This document shows positions 17,311-32,312 of a stretch of 64,000 nucleotides of DNA, piece by piece. The stretch is from an uncultured Clostridia bacterium. Its GTDB lineage: Bacteria; Bacillota; Clostridia; Christensenellales; UBA1242. Positions within the stretch are counted from its first letter, which is position 1. The number at the start of each line of letters is the position of its first letter. Position numbers and translations under genes: made by a program. The stretch lies in assembly GCA_934757845.1 (NCBI GenBank), contig CAKVLQ010000003.1, forward strand, positions 43,657 to 107,656, written 5' to 3'. The notes below the pieces were generated by a model. The model was not told the DNA's origin. It searched no databases and worked only from the letters and a program-made list of their open reading frames with translations.

Positions 17311-17589
17311 ATGAAAAATATTTATCGAGTAGTTATAGAAGAAAAAGAATTAAAACACTTTGAATATCACGAAAGAAATTCAAGTGTTACATATTGGCAG
17401 AAATACGCCAAAAATCAAGAGAATGCAGGGTTTTTTGTTGAGATGCAATTTGAGTATAGCACTGATTCTAAAGAGTTAAGGTTGTTGAAATATGAATCTT
17501 ATAACAGAAAAACTTTCGTTAGAGAAACAGTTTATCTAATAAAGAATAAAGAGCAATTAGCTAGATTAAAAAATAACACTAAAAAATAG
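17311..17589 (+). CDS. small protein, family A copy 1 (HFE..SSV.YWQ motif)
   Basis: Paralogous to 18218-18454 and 19720-20001. Confidence 0.55.
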   Translation: MKNIYRVVIEEKELKHFEYHERNSSVTYWQKYAKNQENAGFFVEMQFEYSTDSKELRLLKYESYNRKTFVRETVYLIKNKEQLARLKNNTKK

Positions 17590-17761
17590 TGTTATCTGTT
17601 AATTTTTCAATTAAGTTTAATTCAAGCATGTCATAAGCTTCTTTGATTTGTTTAATAGCTTCAGTTGAGAGGTGTTCATCTATAAGCCTTTGTTCTAGAA
17701 GGTATTTTAAACTATACTTGCAATCAAACTTGATTATTTCGGTAATTTGCTCATTATTCAT
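17579..17761 (-). CDS. small helical protein, family B copy 1
   Basis: IKF.C..S.KYLLE..L....LS..AI..IK motif shared with 18457-18633. Its 3' end overlaps 17311-17589 by 11 nt. Confidence 0.55.
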   Translation of the reverse strand: MNNEQITEIIKFDCKYSLKYLLEQRLIDEHLSTEAIKQIKEAYDMLELNLIEKLTDNTIF

Positions 17762-17836
17762 AAATTGCTCCTTAAATATTAATTTTTGATTAGTATAGCA
17801 AAATTTTAGAAATAAGGCAAATAAAAGGATAACAAA

Positions 17837-18046
17837 ATGAAATCAAAATCAAATTATGTAGTAATTGTTAATGCATGGAGATACAGCAAAAAATACTATT
17901 TCAAAAATTCAACTTCTGCTTATAACTTTTATTTAAAAAATAAAGAGAAATTTGAATGTTCAATTATTTGTAAAAATGAAATACAAACACATAAGCAGTT
18001 AAGTATGTTTTCAAATGAAATTAAAGAAAGGGAGGAAAAGTCATGA
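17837..18046 (+). CDS. small protein, family C copy 1
   Basis: Loose Y.V....(K/R)YY(F/T)...(S/K)A..(F/Y) pattern shared with 18043 and 19998. Confidence 0.45.
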   Translation: MKSKSNYVVIVNAWRYSKKYYFKNSTSAYNFYLKNKEKFECSIICKNEIQTHKQLSMFSNEIKEREEKS

Positions 18047-18207
18047 TAAGAGATAGTGAAATTTCAGTAGAAAAAACTTATTCAGGTGCAATCGTTATTT
18101 CAATGATTGTAAATGGAGTTTTAGAAACTAGAAGATATTTTTATGTTTCTGTCACCGAGGCAAAAAAACGTTTCAAAAATGAAATGGAAAATTTAATGAA
18201 TAGATAG
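18043..18207 (+). CDS. small protein, family C copy 2 (54 aa, below track cutoff)
   Basis: ATGA overlap with the upstream stop; GGGAGG RBS. Confidence 0.4.
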   Translation: MIRDSEISVEKTYSGAIVISMIVNGVLETRRYFYVSVTEAKKRFKNEMENLMNR

Positions 18208-18217
18208 GTAGGAATTT

Positions 18218-18454
18218 ATGAAAAGAGATTATAGATTAGTTTCTTGTATAAAAGGAACAAAACATTTTGAAAAACTTCATTATGGTTCTTCAGTAGAGTG
18301 TTGGCAAGAAAAAGTAAAAAAAGATGAAGCAGATGGCTGTGTTGTGAGAGTTAATTATGAATATAACGAAATTTTCAGAGAAGTTGTTATGACAAAATAT
18401 TATAGTTTTAATCCAAAAACAAAAATATCCGTTCTAATAACTTTACAAAAATAA
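18218..18454 (+). CDS. small protein, family A copy 2
   Basis: Contains KHFEKLHYGSSVECWQEK; GGTAGG RBS. Confidence 0.55.
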   Translation: MKRDYRLVSCIKGTKHFEKLHYGSSVECWQEKVKKDEADGCVVRVNYEYNEIFREVVMTKYYSFNPKTKISVLITLQK

Positions 18455-18456
18455 CG

Positions 18457-18633
18457 CTAATTAGCGTTATTAATTGAAGAAATCAAATTTTGTTTTAGGT
18501 TTTGAAAACTATCTTTAATGGTTTGGATGGCTTTTTGTGATAAGTTTTCATTTTGCAAGTGAAGTTCTAAAAGATATTTTTCACTTTCATCACAATGAAA
18601 TTTGATTTGATTAATAAGGTCTTGTTTATTCAT
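18457..18633 (-). CDS. small helical protein, family B copy 2 (58 aa, below track cutoff)
   Basis: Translated by hand: MNKQDLINQIKFHCDESEKYLLELHLQNENLSQKAIQTIKDSF... GGAG RBS. Stop lies inside the palindrome AACGCTAATTAGCGTT shared with 18218-18454. Confidence 0.5.
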   Translation of the reverse strand: MNKQDLINQIKFHCDESEKYLLELHLQNENLSQKAIQTIKDSFQNLKQNLISSINNAN

Positions 18634-18712
18634 TATATATACTCCTTAATTAATTTTTTAGTAGTATATCAAAAAATAAATAAAAAAACAAACAAAAAAA
18701 GGAAGGTAAAAA

Positions 18713-18940
18713 ATGAAAATAAATTCAAAAGAGTTAGGTAAAACAGAAGAAGGCTGGGATATAAAAGTTGTTACAAATGAAGATAACGGAAAGGTTACAT
18801 ATATTGGATATTTTGAAATAGGTCCAACAAAACCACCTGTAATGTTTTATTCTGAGCATTTAGAAGAATTAAAAGAAAAGATTAGTAAGTCAAAACATAA
18901 TATTAAAAACAAAAAAATGTTGTTTAGTTTTGCGAGGTAA
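18713..18940 (+). CDS. hypothetical protein
   Basis: AGGAAGG RBS. Confidence 0.45.
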   Translation: MKINSKELGKTEEGWDIKVVTNEDNGKVTYIGYFEIGPTKPPVMFYSEHLEELKEKISKSKHNIKNKKMLFSFAR

Positions 18941-18942
18941 AG

Positions 18943-19269
18943 ATGAAGCTTAAAAGTTTTATAACATCAATAATTACATCAATATTATCAATTGTGGGTT
19001 GTATTATTGTTAATTCGTTTAATGCTGGTCTTATTCCACTAGAGGGTGTTGAGTTGGCTCTTGCAAAAACGACATTAATAGTATTTTATATTTTAACAAT
19101 GATAATTACAATTCCATCAACAATAACTACATTAATTGCTTCAATTAGAGCTTGTTTTAGTGATAGTAAAACGATAAAAATAATTTCAATTGTTTTGTTA
19201 ATTTTGTCTCTTGGTTTGTGTGTTTTTTGCGGTTATGTAACTTATGTGGCTTATACAATGTATTTTTAA
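18943..19269 (+). CDS. small multi-TM membrane protein
   Basis: Three to four hydrophobic segments. Confidence 0.5.
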   Translation: MKLKSFITSIITSILSIVGCIIVNSFNAGLIPLEGVELALAKTTLIVFYILTMIITIPSTITTLIASIRACFSDSKTIKIISIVLLILSLGLCVFCGYVTYVAYTMYF

Positions 19270-19286
19270 AAAAGGAAGGTAAAAAG

Positions 19287-19406
19287 ATGTTAAATATAGC
19301 ATTAAAAATGAATGATAGCAAATATATCAATTACTTATGTTATTGTATTGAGAATAATTTGCATCCTGGCAAAATTGAAAGTTTAGACGCATTTCGTAAT
19401 AAATAA
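19287..19406 (+). CDS. hypothetical 39-aa protein
   Basis: AGGAAGG RBS before ATG 19287; the track start 19218 lacks an RBS. Confidence 0.3.
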   Translation: MLNIALKMNDSKYINYLCYCIENNLHPGKIESLDAFRNK

Positions 19407-19416
19407 AAAAGCGCTT

Positions 19417-19644
19417 TTAAAGCACTTTTTCAAGAGTGAAACATTGTAATTCTTTTGGTAGTTCAGTGTGGAAAATGAGTTGAAAGTTTTGTTTACATAG
19501 TTCATTGTTTAATTTTTCAAGTCCATATCTTTCAATTTGTTTAAATTCCTCATCAAATTGTGCGATTGACATTTTAATGGGTTTGTTGTCTTCTTGTTTA
19601 ATTTCGTTAAAATTTTTAATCAATTTTTCAATTAAATTGTTCAT
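19417..19644 (-). CDS. small protein in B position (copy 3, divergent)
   Basis: Same placement and same conserved upstream region as the B copies; sequence similarity is weak. Confidence 0.45.
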   Translation of the reverse strand: MNNLIEKLIKNFNEIKQEDNKPIKMSIAQFDEEFKQIERYGLEKLNNELCKQNFQLIFHTELPKELQCFTLEKVL

Positions 19645-19719
19645 ACATAACTCCTTAAATAATTTTTTAATAGTCTAGCAAATTTAAGATAAAAAATCAA
19701 ATAAAAGGTAGGTAAATTT

Positions 19720-20001
19720 ATGGTTCAAAGGAAATATCACAATATTACGATAGATAAAAGTGGACAAAAACGATTTTATGAAGGGTTTTATCGCAATAGT
19801 TCAATTAATTATTGGCAAAGATATAGACAAAGTTTTTTAAAAAATAATCCAACAGCAAGATTTAGTATTTTTACATCAAAATTTGATGCCACATTGGTTG
19901 ACAAAGTAATAATATTAAATTCTCAAAATGAGCAATACATAATTATTTCGGATAGCACTCTAAAACGAGAATATCCAGAATTTGTTAATAGGTGTATATG
20001 A
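19720..20001 (+). CDS. small protein, family A copy 3
   Basis: Contains KRFYEGFYRNSSINYWQRY. Confidence 0.55.
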   Translation: MVQRKYHNITIDKSGQKRFYEGFYRNSSINYWQRYRQSFLKNNPTARFSIFTSKFDATLVDKVIILNSQNEQYIIISDSTLKREYPEFVNRCI

Positions 20002-20168
20002 TTAAAACAATATATAAAGTCTACTGCGGGAAAAACGGCAAGTATTATACATATTTAGACTATAAAAAAGCCGAGAAACTATATTTTACACTTATGCTTC
20101 AAAACTACCACACCGCATTAGATGAAATAACAGACGGAAAAACAAAAAGATTATTAGAGCATAAGTAA
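19998..20168 (+). CDS. small protein, family C copy 3 (56 aa, below track cutoff)
   Basis: ATGA overlap with the upstream stop. Contains KVYCGKNGKYYTYLDYKKAEKLYF. Confidence 0.4.
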   Translation: MIKTIYKVYCGKNGKYYTYLDYKKAEKLYFTLMLQNYHTALDEITDGKTKRLLEHK

Positions 20169-20178
20169 GGGAGGAAAA

Positions 20179-21369
20179 ATGAATAAGCCATTAAAGATTA
20201 TATTAATAACAGTCTTAACAATATTAATGTTAGCATCATTTGCATCATGTTGTTTATACGGCTACATTAAACTATTTGCACCTGACAAAAGTGTTAGTTA
20301 CACAGTTAAAGGCGGAGTTTTAGACGGTGTGGAAGATGAAGATTTAAAGTTTATTTTCAACATTAGGCGTTATGACGATTTATTTGAAATAAGATTAAAT
20401 TCTTTTATTGACGAAACAAAAGAAGAAGTTTACGGCACAGGTATTCAATTTTTTAACCCTACTTTTGGCGAGAACATAACTCAAACTCAAAACTTTGTTT
20501 ACACAAAAGAATATTTTGCACTTCCGTTTTATGTGTATAACACATATCAAGATAATTCTTACACTGTTGAAAATTTTTCACCAGCAGAAACAACCGTTGA
20601 AGAAGCAGTAAGCAAATCACGAAATTTATACAAAAATGCATACTTCACAATCACTTTGGATAGTGATGTATACAAATTTACCTTTAAAGACGAAAATGTG
20701 GTAACCGAAACAAAACGGGGCTTTATAGGCTTATATTATGACACATATCAATATCACAATAACTTTATGAAACTTTGTTATGATTTATATCAATCTTCAA
20801 AATCGTTTAAAGAAGGAATAAACCAAGTATATTTGTTTAACTTTACCGATTATTTAGACTTTGCAAAATATGACGAAGCGTCAAAACAATATATCAAAAT
20901 AGTAAATGAAAAGTCTGACGAATATGCACATGTAACAAAACACATGAAAAGATTTTTTGGAGTTAAAGTTGACTGCTACAAAAGAAATGTTGAAAAAGCA
21001 AGTGAAAGTTTGTTTAATAGCGTTGCGGGAATGTATTCATATAACATAGGCAAAAACACCATGGCGTCTGATTATTTTGTTGGAGAAAGCCGAATTTGCT
21101 TAACCGAAAATGCTTTTGAATATAAATTTGACGAAAGAATGGGACATTTTCCAGTTCTAAAAGAAAGTGTTAAAGTCGAACTGCTAAAATATGAAAACAT
21201 CTCTATTGATATTGATTTTAACATGACAATTTTAAAAAATAATAAAATTAAAATGTTAACTATTGATAAAACGAAAATGAATTTAGGAAACTTGAAAATT
21301 CACAAAATCACAAAAACAACTTACACGGACGCAGGAGAAATTGAAAGTTCGGAGGTGGTAAATGTATAA
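20179..21369 (+). CDS. membrane-anchored extracellular protein
   Basis: N-terminal TM/signal anchor (LASFASCC) and a GGGAGG RBS. The KGG motif after the TM is shared with the next gene. Confidence 0.55.
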   Translation: MNKPLKIILITVLTILMLASFASCCLYGYIKLFAPDKSVSYTVKGGVLDGVEDEDLKFIFNIRRYDDLFEIRLNSFIDETKEEVYGTGIQFFNPTFGENITQTQNFVYTKEYFALPFYVYNTYQDNSYTVENFSPAETTVEEAVSKSRNLYKNAYFTITLDSDVYKFTFKDENVVTETKRGFIGLYYDTYQYHNNFMKLCYDLYQSSKSFKEGINQVYLFNFTDYLDFAKYDEASKQYIKIVNEKSDEYAHVTKHMKRFFGVKVDCYKRNVEKASESLFNSVAGMYSYNIGKNTMASDYFVGESRICLTENAFEYKFDERMGHFPVLKESVKVELLKYENISIDIDFNMTILKNNKIKMLTIDKTKMNLGNLKIHKITKTTYTDAGEIESSEVVNV

Positions 21370-22726
21370 TTTATTAGGAATTTTTAGCAGTTTAAAAGAA
21401 TTTATCACTTTGCTTATTATCCTTATAGTTGCGATAACTATATTTACAATATTATTCAAATTTAAAAATGGTAAATGGTTTTTGTTAGGTTTGTGTGGTT
21501 TGGCACTGCTTGTTTGTGGAGTATTTACGGCTTATGCCAATTATGAATACTTTACAATTAAGGGTGGAACGATAGGGTCATTTGGCGATATATTCGAAAA
21601 CAAAAACAAATTGATGCAAAACGAATTGAAATTTGATTTTGAAAATTTTGTTTTAATTGCATCGGGTAACAATGACAACGAATTTTCTGCAAGACTTGCG
21701 ATTGATGCCGTAAACCAAAAAATGACGGATAAAACTATATTTGTTAACGATATACCAACAAAAACTATAAATCGTGGCGATAACTATATATTTTCGGAAT
21801 ATAACTATACATTTTACGATGAGAACTTAAAAGAAAAATGCTCGGACACATTAACAATAAAATTTGTGTTTAATTCAAAAAGTTCAGAGTGTATTCTAAC
21901 AACGCAAGGTGGAATTGATAAAGTTGCCCATTGGAACTACTTTTTAAAGAAAAACAATTTTATTGTTGAAATAAAAAAATATGATTATATCCAAGACACC
22001 GAATTGAAAGTTGACGATGAGATAAATCATACTTTAACATTATATTTTCAAGACGAATTAATTGATATAATCAAGTTTAACATAACAAGCCCCGCAACCC
22101 TACCAACAACTTATAACGGTTTTGCAATAACTGCATGGAAAGATGCGGACGGGAATGTTTACACGCAATCAAATTTGCCAAATCAAGATTTGACTTTGTA
22201 TGCAACTATAAGTCAAACTAAAACATTTTTTGAAATAAATTCAACGAATTTAGTGAGAACCTTTATAACAGATGAGAGTTCCAAACGATATACTTGTAAA
22301 TTTGTTGGAGCATCATATACTCCAAAAATATATGACGATTTTTATGACTTACTTTATCAAAATCCAAACAATCATTTTAATGTAAAATTAAATTTATATG
22401 ATTTTTTGGGAGAAAATTTATCTTTCAACTCAAATGATAAAGGTAATTATGGTTCGCTCAATTCTTCACAACCCATTTCATTTTTTGATTATTTGGTTTC
22501 AACAGATAAAACGGAATATTATGAGGGGTCAAATGAGTTTTATTATAAATTCACTTTTGGTATAGAGCGTAGAAAAATAAATTCAGATTATATATTTACG
22601 CCTTATATTGATGTTGAAATAGTTTGTGCGACTGGTGATTGGAGTGATAGATATAATTTTGTGAAAAAAGATACAGCAAATAATACAATGAGTTTTTCAG
22701 TAACCTGTGAAATAAACAGAGTTTAG
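21362..22726 (+). CDS. membrane-anchored protein with a Listeria-Bacteroides (Flg_new-like) repeat
   Basis: Two N-terminal TM segments. Contains YNGFAITAWKDADGNVYTQ....DLTLYA. Overlaps the upstream gene by 8 nt. Confidence 0.55.
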   Translation: MYNLLGIFSSLKEFITLLIILIVAITIFTILFKFKNGKWFLLGLCGLALLVCGVFTAYANYEYFTIKGGTIGSFGDIFENKNKLMQNELKFDFENFVLIASGNNDNEFSARLAIDAVNQKMTDKTIFVNDIPTKTINRGDNYIFSEYNYTFYDENLKEKCSDTLTIKFVFNSKSSECILTTQGGIDKVAHWNYFLKKNNFIVEIKKYDYIQDTELKVDDEINHTLTLYFQDELIDIIKFNITSPATLPTTYNGFAITAWKDADGNVYTQSNLPNQDLTLYATISQTKTFFEINSTNLVRTFITDESSKRYTCKFVGASYTPKIYDDFYDLLYQNPNNHFNVKLNLYDFLGENLSFNSNDKGNYGSLNSSQPISFFDYLVSTDKTEYYEGSNEFYYKFTFGIERRKINSDYIFTPYIDVEIVCATGDWSDRYNFVKKDTANNTMSFSVTCEINRV

Positions 22727-22827
22727 TTAAAGCAAAATGAAATTTTTATATAAACTTCAAAAAAAAAGGTGGTGGTAATCAAATAAAATTTTAAAAAACA
22801 AAAATTTAAAAATATAGGAGGAAAATT

Positions 22828-23046
22828 ATGAAAACTTTAAAAAACATTTTGATATTTATTCTTGGAGCAGCACTTGCTGCGGGAGTTGTTCTTTTAGTTG
22901 TGTATAGAGATAAAATTTTTAAGAAAAACGACCAAAACCAAGAAGAAACACAAATTGAAGAAAAAACCGACACTAAAACCGATGAAATAGCAAAAACTGC
23001 ATCAATTACAATTTTAAGTGACGGTTCAACAAGATTAAACAAATAA
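22828..23046 (+). CDS. small single-TM protein
   Basis: 72 aa with an N-terminal TM segment and an acidic tail; GGAGG RBS. Confidence 0.5.
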   Translation: MKTLKNILIFILGAALAAGVVLLVVYRDKIFKKNDQNQEETQIEEKTDTKTDEIAKTASITILSDGSTRLNK

Positions 23047-23056
23047 AGGAGAAAAA

Positions 23057-24367
23057 ATGAGCAAAGTAGGAAAAACAATTTTAGGCACAACTCTTGCCAT
23101 ATTACTTGGCGGTGGCGGTGCTTATACGGGTTATGTCGCTATTCAAAAAACTAAACTAGAAAATGATAACAAAAATTTAACTGAAATCGTTGCAGTAAGA
23201 GATAAGGAAAAAGAAGACTTAACAAATAGGTTAACAATATCACTTTCAAATCAAAAACAAACTAGCGGATTAATAACAGGAATTTTTATTGCCGCAATTG
23301 CGAAAGATGTTGCTTCAACTGGTGATGTTCTCACAAATGAAGAATATCAAATCACCGAGAACGAATTTTATATGGTTGATGGTGACGAGGTATTTGCTTT
23401 TCCAATAACCGACATTGGTAATAACCAATTTGAAGTGAGATATGAAAATACACTTATGTTTACGCTAACGCCTCTTTATGACGAGAATTGTTATTGGATG
23501 CAAACAAGCGAAAATGTTATGCCTGCTAATGTGAGGATGTTGCTAGTAAAACAAACAGGTCCTGCTGATATGGTTCATGATGCTGCATTAAAACAATTTG
23601 AAAAAGACAGATTGGAATTAAACTCTTTGCGTGCTCAAATAACCACATTGACACAGGAAAAACAAGACCTACAAGAGCAATTAAGAATAAAAACCGAAGA
23701 ATATAACGAACAATTAGAAAAAGCAAATTCATGCGCAAGTGAAAATCAAACACTAATTGAACAAATCAATCAAAAACAAACAGAGATTGATGCACTTAAC
23801 ACACAAATAACAAACTTGCAAGAACAAATAACACAGTTGAAAGCCCAACTAGAAAGCGGAAAAACGGAAGAACCAACAACATTGTCAGCAGGGCTATATG
23901 AAACAGGGACTACAACACTAACAAAGTCATGGGAGCAATTAATTGCTGACGGAGATATATCAACCGCAGACGGACATTTGCAAGTTACAAATAAAAACCT
24001 TGCAGGCGACTTATTTTGCGAAAGTGTTGATGGTTTAACTTCTTTGAATAGTGCTTTTGAAGATTGTGAAAAATTAACTTTAATAGATTTGTCAAACCTT
24101 GATACGTCTAATGTTACAACAATGGAATGCTTGTTTTTCGGTTGCAATACATTAAGAACAATAAAATTAGGGCGATTTGATATTTCAAAAGTTATCGTGA
24201 GTGCTTCTGGTTTGATGTATTATGGTAATGCATTTTCTTGTAGTGTTTCAGATATATTTTATGCAGGAACAAAAGAAGAGTGGCAAGCAAAAAACTTTTC
24301 AGATGATGCTCAACTTCAACTAGGCGTAACCATTCATTGCACCGATGGCGATTTAGTTACGGAATAA
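23057..24367 (+). CDS. TM-anchored coiled-coil protein with C-terminal BspA-type LRR (26-residue surface repeat)
   Basis: N-terminal TM and a Q/E-rich coiled coil. Contains LTSLNSAFEDCEKLTLIDLSNLDTSNVTTMECLFFGC. Confidence 0.6.
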   Translation: MSKVGKTILGTTLAILLGGGGAYTGYVAIQKTKLENDNKNLTEIVAVRDKEKEDLTNRLTISLSNQKQTSGLITGIFIAAIAKDVASTGDVLTNEEYQITENEFYMVDGDEVFAFPITDIGNNQFEVRYENTLMFTLTPLYDENCYWMQTSENVMPANVRMLLVKQTGPADMVHDAALKQFEKDRLELNSLRAQITTLTQEKQDLQEQLRIKTEEYNEQLEKANSCASENQTLIEQINQKQTEIDALNTQITNLQEQITQLKAQLESGKTEEPTTLSAGLYETGTTTLTKSWEQLIADGDISTADGHLQVTNKNLAGDLFCESVDGLTSLNSAFEDCEKLTLIDLSNLDTSNVTTMECLFFGCNTLRTIKLGRFDISKVIVSASGLMYYGNAFSCSVSDIFYAGTKEEWQAKNFSDDAQLQLGVTIHCTDGDLVTE

Positions 24368-24381
24368 TTTTTATAAAATAA

Positions 24382-24404
24382 AAGAAGTAATATTTACTTC
24401 TTTT
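24382..24404 (+). terminator. rho-independent terminator
   Basis: AAGAAGTAA-tat-TTACTTCTT stem plus Ts. Confidence 0.6.
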
Positions 24405-24504
24405 GTGAACTTTTAGTTTAAAAGGTAAAACTATTAGGTTTTTTTTGGAAATTTTATTATTTTGCGGATAAAAATTTCATTTTGATGACTTCCTTCCTAA
24501 TAAT

Positions 24505-24532
24505 CACAGTTCAAGTCTGTGAAAGTTCACCA
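24505..24532 (+). other. orphan tRNA 3' fragment (T-arm, acceptor 3' strand, ACCA)
   Basis: CACAG-TTCAAGT-CTGTG then AAAGTTC-A-CCA. No D-arm or anticodon arm lies upstream. Differs from tRNA-Phe. Confidence 0.5.
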
Positions 24533-24608
24533 ATGTCTTACAGTGCGCAATGTAAGATTAAAAAGTTATAGTTCTTCTAAAAACTAAATTTAATTAAAGG
24601 AGAAAATT

Positions 24609-24896
24609 ATGGCGAAAGGACAGAGAGCTTATTTTAATAAACAAACAATGGGTCATCCAAAAACTACGAAAAATGGCAAGAAATTCACACTTTTGAATCC
24701 TCATGAAAAAGGCTGTAAAGCAGCTGTTGAATTGCGAACAGGTAGAAATGTCTATACTGGTGAATTTTTAAACGAAAGACAAAGAGCGTATCGTAGTGGT
24801 TATCTTGCTGCTCAAAATGACAGTGCAAGATGTTATAATGCAAAGAATAAGAAAAATGCAAATGGTTTTACTTATTCTGATGTTGAGGAGGTTTAA
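24609..24896 (+). CDS. basic hypothetical protein
   Basis: AGGAG RBS; lysine/arginine-rich, 95 aa. Confidence 0.5.
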   Translation: MAKGQRAYFNKQTMGHPKTTKNGKKFTLLNPHEKGCKAAVELRTGRNVYTGEFLNERQRAYRSGYLAAQNDSARCYNAKNKKNANGFTYSDVEEV

Positions 24897-24898
24897 TT

Positions 24899-25093
24899 TT
24901 GAATTTGACAAAAAAACAAATTGAAATTATACAGCGATATACTCCGGAAGAATTAAAGGGCAAACAAATTCGTTTATATGCAACATTGGGGTCTTTTCGA
25001 CCATCTATGGCAAATTGGTCGTATATTGTTGGTTATGTGTTGTATAAAGGCGTTTATGTTTTGGTTGTAACATGTTTCGGAGAAATACTTTAA
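24899..25093 (+). CDS. hypothetical protein with hydrophobic C-terminus
   Basis: TTG start after GGAGG. Confidence 0.35.
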   Translation: MNLTKKQIEIIQRYTPEELKGKQIRLYATLGSFRPSMANWSYIVGYVLYKGVYVLVVTCFGEIL

Positions 25094-25186
25094 AAAGCAA
25101 TTAAAAAAGTGTAAGACTAAACTACGGTTTAGCAATGTTAAATTACTTTAATATTTAATAATTTAAATTATATTTAGGAGATAATT

Positions 25187-25504
25187 ATGAAAGGAATTAA
25201 AAAAATAGAATTAGTAGATAAAAAAAGTTCAAAAGGTAAAGAATATTCTGTTATTGAGGTAACGATGAGTAATGATAAATCTTTTGATTTATTCTTGGAT
25301 TCTGCTACAAAAGATTTAATTGATGTGGTTGGAAAAGAAGATGTAAATTTAAATTATGTTGAAAAAGAAAGTAAAGAAGGCAAAAAATTTAATGCTATTG
25401 AACTTAAGTTGAATAGTGATGATAATTACACAAAACTTTATTTTATTGATAAAGCGTATGAATTAATTATTAAAAAATTAAGTGAAAAAGTTGCTATAAA
25501 ATAA
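25187..25504 (+). CDS. hypothetical protein with internal two-fold repeat
   Basis: KKSSKGKEYSVIEVTM... and KESKEGKKFNAIELKL... repeats; AGGAG RBS. Confidence 0.5.
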   Translation: MKGIKKIELVDKKSSKGKEYSVIEVTMSNDKSFDLFLDSATKDLIDVVGKEDVNLNYVEKESKEGKKFNAIELKLNSDDNYTKLYFIDKAYELIIKKLSEKVAIK

Positions 25505-25508
25505 TGAT

Positions 25509-25581
25509 AAATAACGAAAAACGAGGCATATTTTGCCTTGTTTTCACTAACTAGGCAAGTATGTTAGTGCTGATGAGTTTT
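25509..25581 (+). ncRNA. hammerhead ribozyme motif, type II topology, copy 1
   Basis: C25515-GAA, stem III 25519-28/25534-43, H17 U25544, stem I 25545-51/25563-69 (7 bp perfect), CUGAUGA 25570-76 and G25577. Stem II is AU-rich and weak. Confidence 0.65.
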
Positions 25582-25592
25582 CTTGCGTTCCA

Positions 25593-25656
25593 ATCGAAAC
25601 TAGGCTATGAAAATGGCCTAGTCTATTAAATTTGACTAATTTAATACTGATGAGAT
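25593..25656 (+). ncRNA. hammerhead ribozyme motif, type II topology, copy 2
   Basis: C25595-GAA, stem III 25599-606/25615-22, GUC with C25623, stem I 25624-32/25638-46 (9 bp perfect), CUGAUGA 25647-53 and G25654. Stem II has only 3-4 bp. Confidence 0.65.
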
Positions 25657-25679
25657 AAGTCAAAAAAAAAGGAGGCTAA

Positions 25680-26000
25680 ATGGAATACCAAAATCGTTCT
25701 GTTGGGGATAAAATACGATATTATAGTTCGTTATCTAAAAAGGGCTCAAGGGATAAGAACGGAAAGTTGTTAAGTGATTTTAAACGTGGAGAATGCCTAG
25801 GAAAATCGTTAATGCTTAGTTATTGCGCAAGAAATATAAAAAAGGTTAAACAGCGAATTCAAAAAGAATTTTTTGCGGAATTGAAAAAATGTAAGCCAAA
25901 TTTGAATGAGAGAAGATATACAGATGCGGATTTAAATGCGCTTTTTGATAATTTGAAAGAAGTTGATATTTTTACTAATTCAATGGATGATATAGTTTGA
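25680..26000 (+). CDS. hypothetical protein
   Basis: GGAGG RBS; overlaps the next gene by 4 nt. Confidence 0.5.
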   Translation: MEYQNRSVGDKIRYYSSLSKKGSRDKNGKLLSDFKRGECLGKSLMLSYCARNIKKVKQRIQKEFFAELKKCKPNLNERRYTDADLNALFDNLKEVDIFTNSMDDIV

Positions 26001-26815
26001 TAACTGTTATTTCAGCGCTTCCAGGTTTTGGTAAAACCTTGTTATTTTCGTATCTAATGGCACAAAAAACTTGCATAGAAGGTTATGATTTATATCGCAA
26101 TAGTTGTAAGTTGATAGAAAAATATAATAATAATGGGTTTAAATTTAGTTATCCAAAGCAAAAACATGTTACATATTTTAATGGACATGCTCGTATTAGC
26201 GTTATGGGTAGACCAGTTAAAATTCCTTATGTATTAAACCCTTGGTATTTGGGACTTCCAACAAAAGAAAGTGAAGTCGATTTAGTTCTTCCAGGTTCTG
26301 TATTGTTTATAGATGAGGCTCAAAGATATTATAATTCAAGAATGTCTTATTATTTCCCCGATTATGTATCTAGATTTTATGAAATGCATAGGCATTATAG
26401 ATTAACAATTTATTTGATTGCTCAAAGAGCAGGGCTTATTGATAAAAATATAAGAAGTATTGCACAAGAATTTATTTATATTGATAGGCTTGAAAAAGAA
26501 GAAGATTCTCTTGGGAATTTAATTCAAGCAAAATGGTATATACATAGATTTAATTGTTATAGTGATTTAGAAAAATATGAAGAAGGTAATAAGGAATTAG
26601 GCACGGAAGATATAATTGTTTGTAATGAGAATTTGTATAAGTTTTTTGATACACATTTCTTTGAATTTTTATATCTTAATGGAAATCAGGATTTTTCGCA
26701 AGAATGGTTAAGACCATACAGATTAATGCCTGATATATGTGAAAAATTAAAAGAAGTTTGGTCAGCAACTCCACCACCAACTTTTTTTGGCGATAAAAGG
26801 GTTGCAGAAGCATAA
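25997..26815 (+). CDS. Zot-like / filamentous-phage pI-like P-loop ATPase
   Basis: Walker A at the extreme N-terminus (MITVISALPGFGKT) and Walker B VLFIDEAQRYY. No TM segment seen. Confidence 0.5.
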   Translation: MITVISALPGFGKTLLFSYLMAQKTCIEGYDLYRNSCKLIEKYNNNGFKFSYPKQKHVTYFNGHARISVMGRPVKIPYVLNPWYLGLPTKESEVDLVLPGSVLFIDEAQRYYNSRMSYYFPDYVSRFYEMHRHYRLTIYLIAQRAGLIDKNIRSIAQEFIYIDRLEKEEDSLGNLIQAKWYIHRFNCYSDLEKYEEGNKELGTEDIIVCNENLYKFFDTHFFEFLYLNGNQDFSQEWLRPYRLMPDICEKLKEVWSATPPPTFFGDKRVAEA

Positions 26816-26829
26816 AAAGGGAGAATATT

Positions 26830-27438
26830 ATGGGTAAAGAAAAAGAAGTTGTTACAATTAAAAAAGTAAAGAAAAATAAGAGAAATAAGACTAAAAAATA
26901 TAGCATTATAAATGTTTTAGACGTTTTGCAAGAGCGATATTTTGGCTTATATGATACTTTATCTCAACATACAGAAGGTTGTTTGTCTGGTGATATGTAT
27001 GGCAAGATGGATGCAATGATGACTGACGATTATAATAATTCTATTAACAATTTAGAGTTTTTAAGTAAAAAAGGAATGAAATATCTTAAAAAGAAAGACT
27101 GTAAAGAACGTAGTAAAATTTTTTGGTATAAATTTCGCAGGTTTTTTGGGTGCAAAATTAATGATGAAATAGAGCAATTAATTTTAAAACGAGAAAAATT
27201 TAATTATGAAATGGCTAAATTATTTGAAGACCCTATTTCGTCAAGTATAAGAAAGCAAATCGAAGAGCCTGAACTTATAGAAGAACCGATAGATGAAGAG
27301 CCTGACTATGTTACGGACTCTGAAGATTTAATAGCGGGTCAAAAAGCGGAGCGGATAATTCAACCAGAAATAGTAGAACAAGAACAATTAGAAGCTCAAA
27401 AACAAAACTCAATAGAGTATAAAGCAGATAATAATTAA
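26830..27438 (+). CDS. hypothetical protein, basic N-terminus and acidic C-terminus
   Basis: GGGAG RBS. Confidence 0.5.
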   Translation: MGKEKEVVTIKKVKKNKRNKTKKYSIINVLDVLQERYFGLYDTLSQHTEGCLSGDMYGKMDAMMTDDYNNSINNLEFLSKKGMKYLKKKDCKERSKIFWYKFRRFFGCKINDEIEQLILKREKFNYEMAKLFEDPISSSIRKQIEEPELIEEPIDEEPDYVTDSEDLIAGQKAERIIQPEIVEQEQLEAQKQNSIEYKADNN

Positions 27439-27453
27439 TTTTTAGCTTACCTG

Positions 27454-27521
27454 TGAGTATTTTTAACCAAAGGTTATGAGTATGGAGAAAAAAAATGAGT
27501 ATTATTGCAAAGCATGAGTAT
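27454..27521 (+). repeat. four direct (A/G)TGAGTAT repeats
   Basis: TGAGTAT at 27454, 27477, 27496 and 27515, with 19-23 nt spacing, upstream of the origin hairpin. Confidence 0.5.
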
Positions 27522-27567
27522 CTTTATAGCAAATTTGCTTGCAAATTTGTGCCCCGCAGGGGCAATT

Positions 27568-27607
27568 CGCAGTTGCTAAAGGTTAGTATTACCCTTTAGC
27601 AACTGCG
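27568..27607 (+). promoter_or_regulatory. rolling-circle origin stem-loop with TAGTATTAC nonanucleotide
   Basis: Perfect 15-bp stem CGCAGTTGCTAAAGG / CCTTTAGCAACTGCG. The 10-nt loop TTAGTATTAC has TAGTATTAC at 27584-27592. Confidence 0.75.
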
Positions 27608-27709
27608 TAACATCGTAACATAACATTTTGAAACCCTTATAAATAAAGGGATTGATAAGTTTTTAACTGCGTAACATATTGGCGTTTTGACTGTGTAACT
27701 GCGTAACAT
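27601..27709 (+). repeat. three perfect 13-nt iterons AACTGCGTAACAT
   Basis: Copies at 27601-13 (overlapping the right arm of the stem), 27665-77 and 27697-709. An extra CGTAACAT half-copy lies at 27614-21. Confidence 0.7.
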
Positions 27710-27742
27710 ACATATTATTTTTTTGATTGGAGCAAATGAGAT

Positions 27743-28684
27743 ATGTCAGAAACAATGAAAAGACGGTGGTGTCTCACTATGAATAATGAGCCACGGTCTT
27801 TGGAAGAACTTAGCGAGTATATAAAAAATTTAGAGCACTTTAAGTATGCAATCTTTCAAAGAGAAGTTGGAGAGCAGAAAGGAACTCCGCATATACAGGC
27901 TTTTATAATATTTTCAGTTGGAAAACGATTTTCTACTATGAAAAACTATTTTCCAGAAGCACATATTGAAGAAGCAAAGGGAACGAATGTTCAGGCTAGA
28001 GATTATTGTTCAAAGAAGGAAACTCGAGTTGAAGGTCCTGTTGAAATTGGGGCATTTGCAGAAGAAAGAGCAAGAACCGATATAAGTAATTTTATGGAGT
28101 TAGTAAAATTAAACACATCTAACGAGGAACTTGAAAAGTTATATCCTAAACTTTATTTAAACAATATTAATAAAATTGAAAGTATTAAAGAACGTGCAAG
28201 ATATGATGAATTTCGGGTTAAGTTGCGAGATATAAATGTTACTTATATTTATGGCAAGCCTGGTATAGGTAAAACGAGTTATATAATAAGTAAGCACCCG
28301 TTAGGAACTTATTATGATGTGCCGTTTTATGGAAATGGAAATTTTGATAATTATAATGGCGAAGATATTATTGTATTTGATGAGTTTACTGGAAAAATAG
28401 ATATTACTTTAATGAATAAACTTCTTGATAGGTATCCAATGCAGTTACCTTCACGGTATTCAAACAAAATTGCTTGTTATACAAAAGTTTATATTGTTTC
28501 AAATTTGCCAATTAGTGAACTTTATAAAAATGATAGAGAAAATGGATTGTTTTATGCATTTTTAAGAAGAATACATACGATTATTAGAATAGATGAAAAA
28601 GGTTTTCACTATGAAAAAAGAACAGTGAATAATATGGCTATTGAATTAATAGAAGAAGGTGGTGAAAATTATGAAAAAAAATAA
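27743..28684 (+). CDS. rep: HUH endonuclease plus SF3 helicase replication initiator (CRESS-DNA-virus / pCRESS-plasmid type Rep)
   Basis: Motif I WCLTMNN, motif II PHIQAFI, motif III DYCSKK, Walker A GKPGIGKT, Walker B IIVFDEF and motif C YIVSN. 313 aa. Confidence 0.8.
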   Translation: MSETMKRRWCLTMNNEPRSLEELSEYIKNLEHFKYAIFQREVGEQKGTPHIQAFIIFSVGKRFSTMKNYFPEAHIEEAKGTNVQARDYCSKKETRVEGPVEIGAFAEERARTDISNFMELVKLNTSNEELEKLYPKLYLNNINKIESIKERARYDEFRVKLRDINVTYIYGKPGIGKTSYIISKHPLGTYYDVPFYGNGNFDNYNGEDIIVFDEFTGKIDITLMNKLLDRYPMQLPSRYSNKIACYTKVYIVSNLPISELYKNDRENGLFYAFLRRIHTIIRIDEKGFHYEKRTVNNMAIELIEEGGENYEKK

Positions 28685-28750
28685 CTGTAAAAAAGAAACT
28701 TAAACAAAAGGGTAAGATTAAATATCAAAAAGAAATAAAGGGAGAAAATT

Positions 28751-29173
28751 ATGAAAGAAAAAGAGAGATATGAAATAGCGGATTTTGAACTTGGAGAGCC
28801 ATCAGTAATGTTTGATAACAAAACACAACAAATAATTTTAACTCTTGAAAATTATTGTTATAATGAAATTTATAAATTAGTTGATTTACTCAACCAGCAA
28901 GACGAAGAAATTAAAGAATTAAAACAACATTCATTAAATGATAAAGAATGGCAAGATTATTGTATTTATAAGAGAATAGAACCACAAATTAAAGGTTGTT
29001 TGGATAGAGAAAATAAACTAATAAAAGAAAACCAACAACTTAAACAATCACAAAAAGAACTTGCTATTAGTGAATCGGATAAGTTGTTTTATAATTTACA
29101 AGGAATGAAACACACCACAAATTTGACAATCATAAGGAGCCTATACGAGTGTATAAAAGGTGGCAAGTGTTAG
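28751..29173 (+). CDS. coiled-coil hypothetical protein (paralog 1)
   Basis: Shares LLNQQDEEIKE and ENQQLKQSQKELAI with the next gene. Confidence 0.5.
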   Translation: MKEKERYEIADFELGEPSVMFDNKTQQIILTLENYCYNEIYKLVDLLNQQDEEIKELKQHSLNDKEWQDYCIYKRIEPQIKGCLDRENKLIKENQQLKQSQKELAISESDKLFYNLQGMKHTTNLTIIRSLYECIKGGKC

Positions 29174-29215
29174 AGTGTATTAATAATCAAATCAAAGAAT
29201 TAAAGGGAGAAAAAT

Positions 29216-29599
29216 ATGGAAAAAAAAGAAAGATATAAATTAATTTATAATGATGAAGAACTGGGCAAGGCAATTATTGATACAGAAGAAGACCTAAGTG
29301 ATGACATTCATAGTTGGAATATTCTGTGTGATTTACTCAACCAGCAAGATAAAGAGATTAAATATTTTCAGAAATTAAATATAGAAATTATCATGCAAAA
29401 TAAGAACATTATAAAAGATGCAGAAATTATAAATCAAGAAAACCAACAACTCAAACAATCACAAAAAGAACTTGCTATAAATGAACTTGAAAAAGCAAAA
29501 AATTTGGCATGTAATGTCATAATAGACCTTGGTTATACAGCTAGACAAATTAACAATTTTCTAGACAATCAAATCAAAAGAATAAAAGAAGGTAAATAA
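29216..29599 (+). CDS. coiled-coil hypothetical protein (paralog 2)
   Basis: 41-nt near-identical block 29438-29478 versus 29025-29065. Confidence 0.5.
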   Translation: MEKKERYKLIYNDEELGKAIIDTEEDLSDDIHSWNILCDLLNQQDKEIKYFQKLNIEIIMQNKNIIKDAEIINQENQQLKQSQKELAINELEKAKNLACNVIIDLGYTARQINNFLDNQIKRIKEGK

Positions 29600-29602
29600 A
29601 CT

Positions 29603-30487
29603 ATGGATATAAACGAAATAATGATAAAAGAAGAAAAAGAATTAACAGAAAGTCAAGCAAAGTTTGTATTGATACATAACAACATTTTAAACGCTGGGGC
29701 AATGATAACTAATAGTGTCATATCATTATCTAAAAATTTAAAAGTTATGAGAGATGAAAAATTGTATTTAGAAGCCGATTGTGAAACTTTTGAAGATTAT
29801 GCAGAAAAAATATGTGGATTAAAACGAAGACAAGCATATAAATACATTCAAGTGTTAGAACAATTAGGTGAAGATTTTGTGCACTCGAGTGCACAAATAG
29901 GTATTACAAAATTATCAATGCTTTCATCACTTCCTGAAGAAGAAAGACAAGCAGTAATTGAAACAGTCGATATAGAAGATTCTAGTGTAACAGAATTAAA
30001 ATCTGAAATTGAAAAATTAACTAAAAAGAATACTGAGTTTGAGAATAAATTTAAAGACAAAGAGGATAAATATAAATACTCTATTGCGGAACTGGAAAAA
30101 GAATTGACTAAACTAAAAGATGAGTTGTCTAAAAAATCTACTCAAATGGAAAAGATAGAAGATGATAAAAAAGTTTCTTCGAATGTCCAAAATGAAGAAT
30201 TAGAAAAGTTGAAAGAAAAAATTAAAAAACTAGAAGGAGAAAAATTATCACAGGAAAATATTTCAAAAATGCATGAGCGGTCTTTGACAAAAATTCAAAA
30301 CAAATGTGAGAGCCTTCAAAAACAATTGGAGATAAATAATTCAACAGCGTTAGTGGAATTCAAATTTAGGTTTGAAGAATTACAGCAAAATATTTATGCA
30401 ATAAATAATTTGATTTCTCGTGTTCCTGAAGATAAAAGAGAAAATTGTAAATTAGCGTTAAAGAAGGTGGTGGAAACATTATGTTAA
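29603..30487 (+). CDS. putative DNA-binding protein (HTH) with long coiled coil
   Basis: FEDYAEKICGLKRRQAYKYIQV HTH-like segment, then a K/E-rich coiled coil. Confidence 0.45.
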   Translation: MDINEIMIKEEKELTESQAKFVLIHNNILNAGAMITNSVISLSKNLKVMRDEKLYLEADCETFEDYAEKICGLKRRQAYKYIQVLEQLGEDFVHSSAQIGITKLSMLSSLPEEERQAVIETVDIEDSSVTELKSEIEKLTKKNTEFENKFKDKEDKYKYSIAELEKELTKLKDELSKKSTQMEKIEDDKKVSSNVQNEELEKLKEKIKKLEGEKLSQENISKMHERSLTKIQNKCESLQKQLEINNSTALVEFKFRFEELQQNIYAINNLISRVPEDKRENCKLALKKVVETLC

Positions 30488-30807
30488 AAAAAGAATTTAT
30501 TTTAATGCAAAGACAGGATTTGGAAACAAGCAATAATTTAGTTTTTAAACAGTTATTAAATGCCGTAGAAGAAGTTTTAGAAGATTATCCGGATTATATA
30601 GATTTTAATTCTAATTTAACTATAGAAGATTGCTATGAAAAAATGAGAACTAGAGCAAAACAAAAAGCAGTTAATAATTGTTACTGTTTTACACCAAAAG
30701 AAACAAAAGAGTTTATTATAGAATATTTAAGTTTAAAAGATATTAAACAAAAAGATTCTATAAATACTACAAAAACAAATTTTATAAATTTAGAAGATTT
30801 TATATAG
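30481..30807 (+). CDS. PcfK-like protein (tentative)
   Basis: About 108 aa, immediately upstream of a PcfJ-like gene as in enterococcal conjugative plasmids. Called from position and size only. Confidence 0.3.
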   Translation: MLKKEFILMQRQDLETSNNLVFKQLLNAVEEVLEDYPDYIDFNSNLTIEDCYEKMRTRAKQKAVNNCYCFTPKETKEFIIEYLSLKDIKQKDSINTTKTNFINLEDFI

Positions 30808-30815
30808 GTGGTAAT

Positions 30816-32312
30816 ATGGCATATATAAAAGTTGAAGATAGAAAATTATTAAAAGAAGTTTGTGATTGTTGTAATAGAGATAATTTACCAAAAGATATTG
30901 ATATTTGGCTTGATAAAACGGTTTTTAAAGAACATAGGTATTTGTTTTATAAAAAAACTGAAAATAATGTTTTAGGTTATTGCCAAAATTGTAAATGCGA
31001 AAATATGGTTATCAAAAAAGATAAATCACAAAGATTTATATATTGTCTTAATTGCCATGGGAAGATGAAATTAAAAAATATTAAATTTAAAGAATGTTGC
31101 GATAGAGATTATTTTCAATATGTAACAAAATTGTCTGATGAAACTTTTATTTTAAGAACATTTAGGGTTGAACGAATTACACATTATTTAAGCATTAAAT
31201 ATGTTTATTTTGAAATGCAAAGACTGTTGTTTAAAATTGATTTTTTTAATAGTAATGTTTATTTTCATCGATATTATAGGGAATATAATTCTGATTGGAC
31301 TTTGGGTTATTATAAAAATATGGCGTATACTTTGCCAGATTGTTTATATGTATATAATAAAAACTTAATGATGTTTAATATTGGCCATTTAAAATATTTG
31401 CCTTTAAATAAATTTTGTTTGAATACTAAAATAGATTTATATAGTTTTTTTAAATCTTACTACAAATTTCCGCAATATGAATATTTGATTAAGTTAAAGT
31501 TGTATAATTTAGTATCAGATTTTGTAGATAGAGATTACTTGTCTTATAAAAATTATGATGCTAAAGAAAATAATATAATTAAGTTTTTAAAACTTGAGAA
31601 GCCATATTTTAAATATTTAATTAATCATAATTTAGATTCCTTTGATTTTAATAGTTTACAGTATTTACAAAAATATAATATTAAACCTAGTAAAAAAGAT
31701 TTAGAATTTATGCATGTGTTTAAATCGGCGTTTAATTCTGATGATGTTTTTAAAACAATTAGTTATACTTCGTTAAAAAAATATTATTTTAAAACTTTAA
31801 AAGATTATAATAATTTAAGGGATTATGGAGATTATTTAGAAAATGCAAAAATATTGAAATATGATTTATCAGATACGAAATATTTAAAACCTAAAGATTT
31901 TAAAATAGCTCATGATATGGCTTATATGAAAGTGGAGTCAATAAAAAATAAATCGTTATATGATGCGGTTCAATCAAAATGTAAAAAATATCAAAAATTA
32001 AAATATGAGAGTAAAAAATATTCCATAGTTGTGCCAAAAAGGGCCGAGGATATTATTCAAGAAGGAATTGATAATCATAACTGTGTAGGTTCATATTTAG
32101 GTCGTGTTAAAGACGGTAATTCAATTATTTGTTTTGTTCGACATAGTGATAGTTTAAATAAAAGTTTTTATACATTGGAGCTTAACCCAAAAACTTTGAA
32201 GGTTGAGCAGTGTCGAGGGTATTCAAACGGGACAACACCAGAAGAAACAGCTGTTCAAAAATTTGTAACTGCTTGGCGAAAAAATATAGTATTAAAGAAA
32301 ATGAAGATATAA
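30816..32312 (+). CDS. PcfJ-like protein
   Basis: N-terminal Cys-rich fingers. C-terminal EGIDNHNCVGSYLGRV..G.SIICFVR....FYTLEL......QCRGYSN recalled as the PcfJ signature. Confidence 0.5.
   Translation: MAYIKVEDRKLLKEVCDCCNRDNLPKDIDIWLDKTVFKEHRYLFYKKTENNVLGYCQNCKCENMVIKKDKSQRFIYCLNCHGKMKLKNIKFKECCDRDYFQYVTKLSDETFILRTFRVERITHYLSIKYVYFEMQRLLFKIDFFNSNVYFHRYYREYNSDWTLGYYKNMAYTLPDCLYVYNKNLMMFNIGHLKYLPLNKFCLNTKIDLYSFFKSYYKFPQYEYLIKLKLYNLVSDFVDRDYLSYKNYDAKENNIIKFLKLEKPYFKYLINHNLDSFDFNSLQYLQKYNIKPSKKDLEFMHVFKSAFNSDDVFKTISYTSLKKYYFKTLKDYNNLRDYGDYLENAKILKYDLSDTKYLKPKDFKIAHDMAYMKVESIKNKSLYDAVQSKCKKYQKLKYESKKYSIVVPKRAEDIIQEGIDNHNCVGSYLGRVKDGNSIICFVRHSDSLNKSFYTLELNPKTLKVEQCRGYSNGTTPEETAVQKFVTAWRKNIVLKKMKI

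Follow-up and report, generated by a model that had tools for sequence, protein, structure and literature searches.

Regarding the pairing of a Zot-family ATPase with a replication initiator (Rep) of the circular Rep-encoding single-stranded (CRESS) virus type, several related systems have been described. Roux et al. (2019) listed iPF_00203, "RCR + helicase, Viral_Rep" (RCR, rolling-circle replication; 56 sequences), among the inovirus replication families, and characterized the genuine pI protein as having one or two transmembrane (TM) domains, C-terminal in Gram-negative hosts and N-terminal in Gram-positive hosts. Tisza et al. (2020) reported ctbe30 and ctbc27, circular genomes from macaque stool that encode a CRESS Rep, Zot, RstB, and inovirus coat genes, and noted prophage counterparts of genomes of this type. 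A stand-alone Zot domain is present in Firmicutes-targeted gut inoviruses, which encode coat proteins (Sugimoto et al., 2021). For Enterocloster prophages, Burckhardt et al. (2023) observed filaments as well as pI DNA that was protected from DNase. Carriers of p4M-like Reps, on the other hand, were described as integrated plasmids without viral structural genes; a supplementary table of the same study annotates a Zot/assembly protein in a Hungatella pCRESS2 element (Kazlauskas et al., 2019). In the present study, we analyzed 64,000 nt of contig CAKVLQ010000003.1 from an uncultured Clostridia bacterium (the window; G+C content of approximately 28%), which contains an 18.9-kb integrated element with both a Zot-family ATPase and a CRESS-type Rep. 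The original prediction, made from the sequence alone, asked whether this element is a cryptic filamentous prophage or an integrated rolling-circle plasmid; the range it flagged (20179-28684) is only the central part of the element, with the morphogenesis-like genes and Rep.

The element is probably an intact temperate prophage that belongs to a large inovirus-related (Tubulavirales-like) lineage of gut Clostridia with a stand-alone Zot ATPase, and the label "cryptic inovirus" is likely to be appropriate. The inovirus-like side of the question is favored by the identity of the ATPase, by a conserved gene block around which the Rep has been exchanged, and by circular relatives from viromes. With a TM-less ATPase and no recognizable canonical coat protein, however, a filamentous virion is inferred and not demonstrated. 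The borders are a perfect 46-nt direct repeat, in which attL (13555-13600, + strand), the last 46 nt of tRNA-Phe(GAA) (13525-13600), recurs identically as attR (32446-32491, + strand), and these repeats define the insert at 13601-32491. The tRNA belongs to a cluster of Pro, Met, Asp, and Phe tRNAs at 13259-13600. A tyrosine integrase of 366 aa is encoded at 13751-14851 (- strand; Pfam Phage_integrase at 50.6 bits and Phage_int_SAM_3; phrog_1 at 1e-41), and the predicted combination of an integrase and a tRNA attachment site was borne out. The predicted absence of tailed-phage structural genes also held, since scans of the open reading frames (ORFs) of the element against Pfam and PHROGs returned no credible terminase, portal, capsid, or tail family.

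The ATPase is encoded at 25997-26815 (+ strand) by an ORF with a TTG start, the stand-alone product of which comprises 272 aa and carries Walker A at residues 8-14, the extreme N-terminus, as expected. It matched Pfam Zot (PF05707) at 33.4 bits (cut-off 20.3) and no other Pfam family, its residues 1-164 matched phrog_197 "Zot-like toxin" (2e-13), and its sole meaningful sequence relative in the PDB was 2r2a, the N-terminal domain of Zot. A structure model built on 18 homologs (predicted local distance difference test [pLDDT], 74) had 2r2a as its best PDB match (E 1.7e-07), with RecA (1e-04) and B204 of Sulfolobus turreted icosahedral virus (STIV; 4e-03) well behind; among viral models, an Inoviridae Zot ranked first (4e-10) and ORF3 of Acholeplasma phage L2 next (6e-07). 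In a tblastn search of the phage collection, all 49 matches were to inoviruses or virome genomes named "Inovirus". The profile and structure comparisons with Zot/pI that had been suggested for this ORF consequently returned Zot, and since Pfam, PHROGs, and the fold agree, the alternative of an unrelated P-loop protein fails. Judged by its sequence profiles and predicted fold, the ATPase is a real Zot-family protein, and its closest domain is Zot and not another FtsK/HerA-type ATPase, which is what Roux et al. (2019) expect of a pI.

The genes around this ATPase are conserved in a large family of loci. A protein search with the ATPase returned 23 relatives, all with the precomputed Pfam domain Zot (one also with PF09848), on contigs that share the order integrase, helix-turn-helix (HTH) protein, small ORFs, two to three large anchored proteins, four small ORFs, Zot, an ORF of approximately 200 aa, and Rep. 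The sample of the host family comprised 201 genomes from 58 genera, and a Zot gene was present in 61 of these genomes and 28 of these genera. A profile search of the whole library yielded 146 Zot clusters (50% identity) at E <= 1e-30, nearly all of 240-317 aa with an N-terminal Walker A, while a scan of IMG/VR with the Zot alignment detected one distant locus only (L008). We mapped 30 loci (labeled L0xx). Related uncultivated circular genomes of 5.7-10 kb from rodent feces, among them the bajarodino viruses, are deposited as Inovirus. Zot is located 3' of large anchored proteins in every mapped locus and is directly followed by a small protein in 29, the exception being L044, in which Rep comes directly after it. 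A rolling-circle initiator is found downstream of Zot in all but bajarodino virus 12; by type, Viral_Rep+S3H (CRESS-type) occurs in nine loci, Rep_1 in four, and the phage-type REP_ORF2-G2P (PF23343) in 14. Rep has been exchanged among at least four families while the Zot block stays, and it is the Zot block, not Rep, that defines the lineage, the CRESS-type Rep being one of at least four interchangeable modules.

In the window, the module is a p4M-like, pCRESS2-type Rep of 313 aa (27743-28684, + strand), which starts 930 nt 3' of Zot and consists of a CRESS-type HUH endonuclease and a superfamily 3 (SF3) helicase (Pfam Viral_Rep PF02407 at 56 bits; RNA_helicase PF00910 at 24.5 bits). It is 33.6% identical to RepA of the Bifidobacterium plasmid p4M over 90% of the query, p4M being its only relative in PLSDB, and 32-38% identical to the Reps of bajarodino viruses 13, 74, 30, 56, and 2. 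Its motif LPxRYxNxxACxTKVYIxSN resembles, as compared by eye, the pCRESS2 rows of a published alignment (Kazlauskas et al., 2019). A rolling-circle origin lies at 27568-27710 (+ strand) and is supported by its folding z-score, repeats, and Rfam. Its hairpin (27568-27607), approximately 135 nt 5' of Rep, has a 15-bp stem with the loop TTAGTATTAC and the nonamer TAGTATTAC, folds as single-stranded DNA (ssDNA) at -17.9 kcal/mol (z = -6.6 against shuffled sequences), and is flanked by four iterons, TAACTGCGTAACATA. The same nonamer is present between Zot and Rep in all other loci with a CRESS Rep except L004. The predicted rolling-circle Rep of the CRESS-type HUH-SF3 kind and its origin were accordingly recovered, as were the ATPase and the very small ORFs, each at the positions listed; the accompanying statement that inoviruses are not known to use such a Rep is contradicted by iPF_00203 (Roux et al., 2019), the genomes of Tisza et al. 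(2020), and GenBank records such as bajarodino viruses 13, 74, and 30. As a separate observation, the origin hairpin (27573-27620) aligned with Rfam RF03070 "ssNA-helicase RNA" at 39.4 bits (E 5e-04; gathering score, 41.5), and what is curated as an "RNA" motif may be a DNA origin used by the CRESS-type Reps of bacterial elements.

Upstream of Zot is the block of large proteins that the original prediction described as TM-anchored. A TM segment was called when a 19-residue window reached a Kyte-Doolittle value of 1.6. The description stands for three proteins with clear N-terminal hydrophobic segments, namely, the 396-aa protein at 20179-21369 (one N-terminal TM segment), the 454-aa protein at 21362-22726 (two N-terminal TM segments), and the 72-aa single-TM protein at 22828-23046 (all + strand), but not for the 436-aa protein at 23057-24367 (+ strand), the weakly hydrophobic N-terminal stretch of which stays below the threshold. 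The 20179 and 21362 proteins had no match in Pfam, PHROGs, or the phage database. Homologs of 21362 occur in L011 and L030, and those of 20179 (404-443 aa) in nine other loci, several directly 3' of a single-TM ORF of 60-69 aa; the 20179 protein is the most widely shared structural candidate. The 23057 protein contains a coiled coil and C-terminal repeats with scores over the cut-offs for DUF285 (26.3 bits) and the PARCEL model TIGR02167 (37.9 bits). It is a surface repeat protein, as foreseen, of the PARCEL type and not of the leucine-rich repeat (LRR)/BspA type proper (LRR_5). In L010 and L011, the two relatives that were scanned, Flg_new (74.7 bits) or LRR_5 (99 bits) repeats are found in the last of the large proteins upstream of Zot; adhesin repeats are thus interchangeable at this position, which fits a role in host recognition, and the 23057 protein is a candidate adsorption protein.

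The 22828 protein (TM at residues 7-25, AGGAGG ribosome-binding site) is the only single-TM ORF of 30-90 aa with a good ribosome-binding site in the element and, on its sequence features, its sole coat-protein-like candidate. Small ORFs of this kind with an N-terminal TM are found in many relatives, often just 5' of the 20179-family gene. Between the adhesin gene and Zot, four small proteins are encoded at 24609-26000 (+ strand), in an order that is kept before Zot in L001, L004, L005, and L009: 24609 (95 aa, basic), 24899 (64 aa), 25187 (105 aa), and 25680 (106 aa, basic), the last of which overlaps the start of the Zot gene. Two of these neighbors of Zot are very basic. Across the family, small basic proteins (in the window, 24609-24896 and 25680-26000; also in L033, L037-L039, and L043) share the motif L-T/S-D/x-x-E/Q-x-x-x-R-x-G-Y-L ... 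D-S/H ... Y/F-K, with two paralogs per element in the clade of the window and no matches to database families; they are candidate DNA-coating proteins. A confident model of the 25187 protein (pLDDT 89) displays two beta-beta-beta-alpha repeats, and its nearest PDB folds give no more than a hint of single-strand binding. Directly after Zot, a 202-aa protein with an acidic C-terminus (26830-27438, + strand) belongs to a family common to L001, L004, L005, and L009 that always holds this place in the close clade, and it had no match in Pfam, PHROGs, or NCBIfam.

Several findings weigh against an inovirus-related prophage. No TM window is present in the ATPase or in the Zot proteins of the 30 family loci, and 148 of the 150 best library relatives also lack one, the remaining two showing a marginal hydrophobic window over the N-terminal strand and P-loop; the ATPase consequently falls outside the description of a genuine pI by its TM domains (Roux et al., 2019). 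No ORF of the element matched a coat-protein family in Pfam or PHROGs, so that the coat protein sought in the original prediction is represented, weakly, by one atypical candidate: the 22828 protein has an acidic 47-aa tail after its TM where a basic C-terminus is expected, and is without a counterpart in the closest relative, L004. The four small proteins adjoining Zot are all soluble, and the nearest PDB folds of 25187 (Pur-alpha, PrgE, and the single-stranded DNA-binding protein [SSB]) all had non-significant E-values; an assignment of 25187 as a gene-V-type SSB was rejected because the model, although confident, had no significant PDB match. A length of 18.9 kb is also large for an inovirus.

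Under the favored reading of an inovirus-related prophage, the cycle may proceed as follows. Loss of the repressor would allow the integrase to excise a circle, and nicking of the + strand nonamer by Rep would yield single-stranded circles. The small basic and PUR-like proteins (24609, 25187, and 25680) might then coat the ssDNA, and the soluble Zot would dock on the membrane proteins 18943, 20179, 21362, and 22828 to drive the non-lytic assembly and export of a particle. The PARCEL-repeat protein 23057 could form the host-binding tip of this particle.

The lineage appears to be mobile. In the genus-mate G025, a complete tRNA-Phe is followed approximately 180 nt on by the degV ortholog, which represents an empty site, while the tRNA-Phe/degV site of G201 holds a different, related element with an integrase that is 55% identical to that at 13751-14851. 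In this G201 element (L047, G201:C67, 4283-5607), the integrase sits at the other end and points the other way with respect to the att core; thus, the arrangement of integrase and att differs between relatives. In a close relative with a 57% identical Zot, a metagenome contig passes from the Rep side directly into the integrase and HTH genes, and the join consists of a partial tRNA 3' end and a terminator without a full tRNA; this is an attP-type junction of a circle or tandem array. In L030 (G043:C2, 1362-18500), an 8,562-bp unit encoding Zot, a CRESS Rep, and homologs of the 20179 and 21362 proteins is repeated perfectly in tandem, with two TAGTATTAC origins behind a single integrase. By analogy with CTX-phi arrays, such an arrangement could in principle let Rep release unit-length ssDNA without excision. 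A test for circularity by terminal redundancy was negative in seven small metagenome contigs.

Among the alternatives, an integrated rolling-circle plasmid or integrative mobilizable element (IME) of the pCRESS2 kind, which is not packaged in virions, fares best and still appears unlikely. The Zot-like ATPase and membrane proteins would then serve cell-to-cell DNA transfer or surface functions, in the manner of the FtsK-like TraB and of Spd in actinomycete integrative and conjugative elements (AICEs). The set of an integrase, rolling-circle Rep, P-loop ATPase, and small membrane proteins does parallel these actinomycete elements, the ATPase is soluble, a coat protein is not recognizable, the Rep is p4M-like with its one-third identity to p4M RepA, conjugative elements commonly carry PcfJ and a DUF3102-like gene, and Kazlauskas et al. 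(2019) class such integrated elements as plasmids. However, the ATPase, which matches Zot, had no match to FtsK/SpoIIIE or VirB4/VirD4 families by Pfam or fold search, and in PLSDB its relatives were confined to small replicons (7-9 kb) of Neisseria and Eikenella, for which a Zot-domain protein is annotated. The features of an AICE or IME (an FtsK/SpoIIIE translocase, relaxase, coupling protein, or type IV secretion gene) were likewise not found by Pfam, PHROGs, or NCBIfam. Moreover, the Zot block is retained while plasmid-type and phage-type Reps swap, related genomes were deposited as circular viruses from feces, some with canonical coat-like genes, and PcfJ is missing from many relatives.

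A temperate virus with a non-filamentous, pleomorphic, membrane-derived particle in the style of plasmaviruses or pleolipoviruses is quite unlikely. In such a particle, the large anchored proteins would act as spikes of the envelope, with the ATPase loading DNA into vesicles as they bud. Phage L2 (Plasmaviridae), a double-stranded DNA virus of a wall-less host, provides the basis for this proposal: the ATPase model also matches L2 ORF3 (E 6e-07), and the L2 order of large envelope proteins, a small ORF, ATPase, a small ORF, origin, and integrase is similar to that of the element, which likewise has several large anchored and multi-TM small proteins and no canonical coat protein. On the other hand, the matches to inoviruses in Zot fold and sequence are stronger than those to L2, and in a BLASTP comparison of all 14 L2 proteins with 903 family ORFs, only the integrase matched below E 0.01, and not ORF1 or the envelope proteins ORF13 and ORF14. 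In the L2 record, origins of replication with putative DnaA-binding sites are annotated, but a Rep is not. Rolling-circle replication of ssDNA, with Reps of the phage-type G2P kind in half of the family, fits Tubulavirales. The hosts furthermore appear to have a cell wall and to form spores (L004 is flanked by SpoVAC and a sigma-factor gene), which would make budding hard.

A defective, domesticated remnant, immobile and particle-less, is very unlikely, since its large size and many accessory ORFs are outweighed by att repeats identical at 46/46 positions, by an intact integrase, repressor, Rep (with all motifs), origin, and Zot, by a 99% identical Zot protein on another metagenome contig, and by the empty site in G025. 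We also rejected a double-jelly-roll, tectivirus-like virus with a packaging ATPase, for which no TM-less capsid-like ORF was present and the fold match to STIV B204 was far below that to Zot.

Apart from these whole-element alternatives, we assign a low probability to the notion that members of the TM-less Zot clade (at least 146 clusters at 50% identity, approximately 30% of host-family genomes) form something other than a classical coat-protein filament. The particle could then consist of ssDNA that is condensed by small soluble basic and PUR-like proteins and exported via phage membrane proteins, or it could be enveloped and L2-like. If true, this would represent a new virion type or DNA-export system that is linked to inoviruses by its ATPase alone.

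The remaining features of the element include its left arm, in which a 223-aa nuclease-like accessory protein (14990-15661, - strand) follows the integrase, with weak PHROG matches to a Holliday-junction resolvase/endonuclease family (7e-07); a DUF2726 protein occupies the equivalent position in the relative L052. The adjacent XRE-family repressor (15667-15996, - strand; Pfam HTH_3 at 51 bits; phrog_8 at 1e-17) is divergent from the + strand operon, and the association of such a repressor with the integrase is kept in relatives. Outside the left arm, the other long ORFs are all on the + strand, as are most of the small ones. An early block of small ORFs with paralogous families (16262-20168, + strand) was delineated from the ORF list and a hydrophobicity scan and includes a three-TM protein of 108 aa at 18943-19269; several of its families are common to L001, L004, and L005, and a family scan of its ORFs returned no matches. 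A hairpin just inside attL (13601-13660) resembles the native terminator after tRNA-Phe in G025 (compare L048, 77-140), and, like L052, the element seems to have a tRNA terminator copy of its own at attP. A 17-nt core of this hairpin recurs between the origin iterons (27631-27665), where it may be left over from a former attP beside Rep.

A tRNA-like gene with an encoded CCA is located at 24407-24532 (+ strand; Rfam tRNA at 39.5 bits, cut-off 29). It is complete in its acceptor stem, D arm, and T arm, and its anticodon arm is enlarged by approximately 57 nt. In L001, L004, L005, and L009, the gene is found in the same spot, with the adhesin gene on one side and the small-protein operon on the other, and its acceptor stem shows compensatory changes. 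Because of this conservation, we rejected a composite or tandem element in which 24407-24532 would be an internal att relic; a processing site for RNase P/Z or a structured single-strand origin is possible. Two hammerhead ribozyme cores proposed at 25509-25665 had no Rfam match at E <= 0.1 in a scan of 13000-33000.

Downstream of Rep, an accessory block at 28751-32312 (+ strand; Pfam, PHROGs) comprises the paralogs 28751 and 29216, a DUF3102-like coiled-coil protein (29603), a 108-aa ORF, and PcfJ (30816-32312; 119 bits in Pfam), with PHROGs matches to phrog_8470 (1e-56) and phrog_15609 (6e-26). Of the PcfJ/PcfK-like genes that had been proposed, PcfJ was thereby upheld, but not PcfK, since neither 30481-30807 nor its neighbors matched a family. 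The block, which is present in L004 and L011 and missing from L001 and L005, is exchangeable accessory cargo. Given that PcfJ occurs in some relatives and is absent in others, it says little about the plasmid ancestry to which it was taken to point.

The dichotomy of inovirus or plasmid is largely settled by these results. Concerning the debate on whether bacterial CRESS-like Reps belong to integrated plasmids (Kazlauskas et al., 2019) or phages, at least this subset is carried by inovirus-related prophages. The practical value lies in annotation: nearly a third of the genomes in this gut Clostridia family, which are of approximately 1 Mb, carry such elements, and almost none of the proteins is named. 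The genome that harbors the present element is 1.05 Mb in 12 contigs (estimated completeness, 100%), with a range of 0.7-1.5 Mb in the family, and a single 18.9-kb prophage corresponds to approximately 1.8% of it.

Compared with known systems, the element shares with pCRESS2 its Rep type, as indicated by Pfam, the identity to p4M, and the motifs compared by eye, and site-specific integration with att repeats. While pCRESS2 elements were described without viral structural or morphogenesis homologs (Kazlauskas et al., 2019), the present element has a conserved, morphogenesis-like block of a Zot ATPase and membrane proteins. With the iPF_00203 inoviruses, compared here by description, it shares a Zot-type ATPase together with a CRESS-type HUH-SF3 Rep, and, as set out for inoviruses, Rep and the other expected genes lie near pI, genes are short (ORFs of 54-110 aa), and unexpected Pfam domains are few, PcfJ being the only one; the accepted pI proteins have one or two TM domains, whereas the ATPase of the element has none (Roux et al., 2019). 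The genomes ctbe30 and ctbc27, also compared by description, are similar in their gut origin, their Zot and CRESS Rep, and their prophage counterparts on Clostridia chromosomes (Tisza et al., 2020). A stand-alone Zot in Clostridia-targeted genomes is common to the element and "Clade-1" (Ino-01 to Ino-06), one genome of which also encodes a tyrosine recombinase and has a tRNA as its integration site (Sugimoto et al., 2021). The genomes of Sugimoto et al. (2021) and Burckhardt et al. (2023), at 5.6-9.4 kb (one Enterocloster prophage, 16 kb), were chosen for a recognizable Inoviridae major coat protein, in contrast to the 18.9-kb element, in which none is detectable.

There is also a correspondence with the bajarodino viruses. 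Bajarodino virus 12 (PQ006185), a circular genome of 9,828 bp from rodent feces that was deposited as Inovirus, encodes a TM-less Zot with 31.6% identity across 86% of the query. Its gene order matches that of the element: integrase, repressor, and small ORFs come first, followed by two large anchored proteins, Zot, and a protein of approximately 200 aa; unlike the element, it has no recognizable Rep. Bajarodino viruses 13, 74, and 30 (PQ006184, PQ006121, and PQ006165) encode CRESS-type Reps that are 33-38% identical, with the TAGTATTAC nonamer 5' of Rep, and also small single-TM proteins of canonical coat build and an RstB-like protein, both of which are missing from the window. In 13 and 74, a TM-less Zot adjoins the CRESS Rep; since these two viruses also encode the proteins of canonical coat build, a soluble Zot is compatible with an inovirus-type gene set. 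These four genomes (12, 13, 74, and 30), which are known as genomes and not as particles, are smaller than the element (7.8-10.2 kb against 18.9 kb) and without the PcfJ block and tRNA-like gene. The pairing of Zot with a CRESS Rep has already been published (Roux et al., 2019; Tisza et al., 2020; supplement of Kazlauskas et al., 2019), and the element is not a new kind of hybrid. Taken together, it is a solid new addition to a very common, catalogued group of filamentous-phage-like prophages of gut Clostridia.

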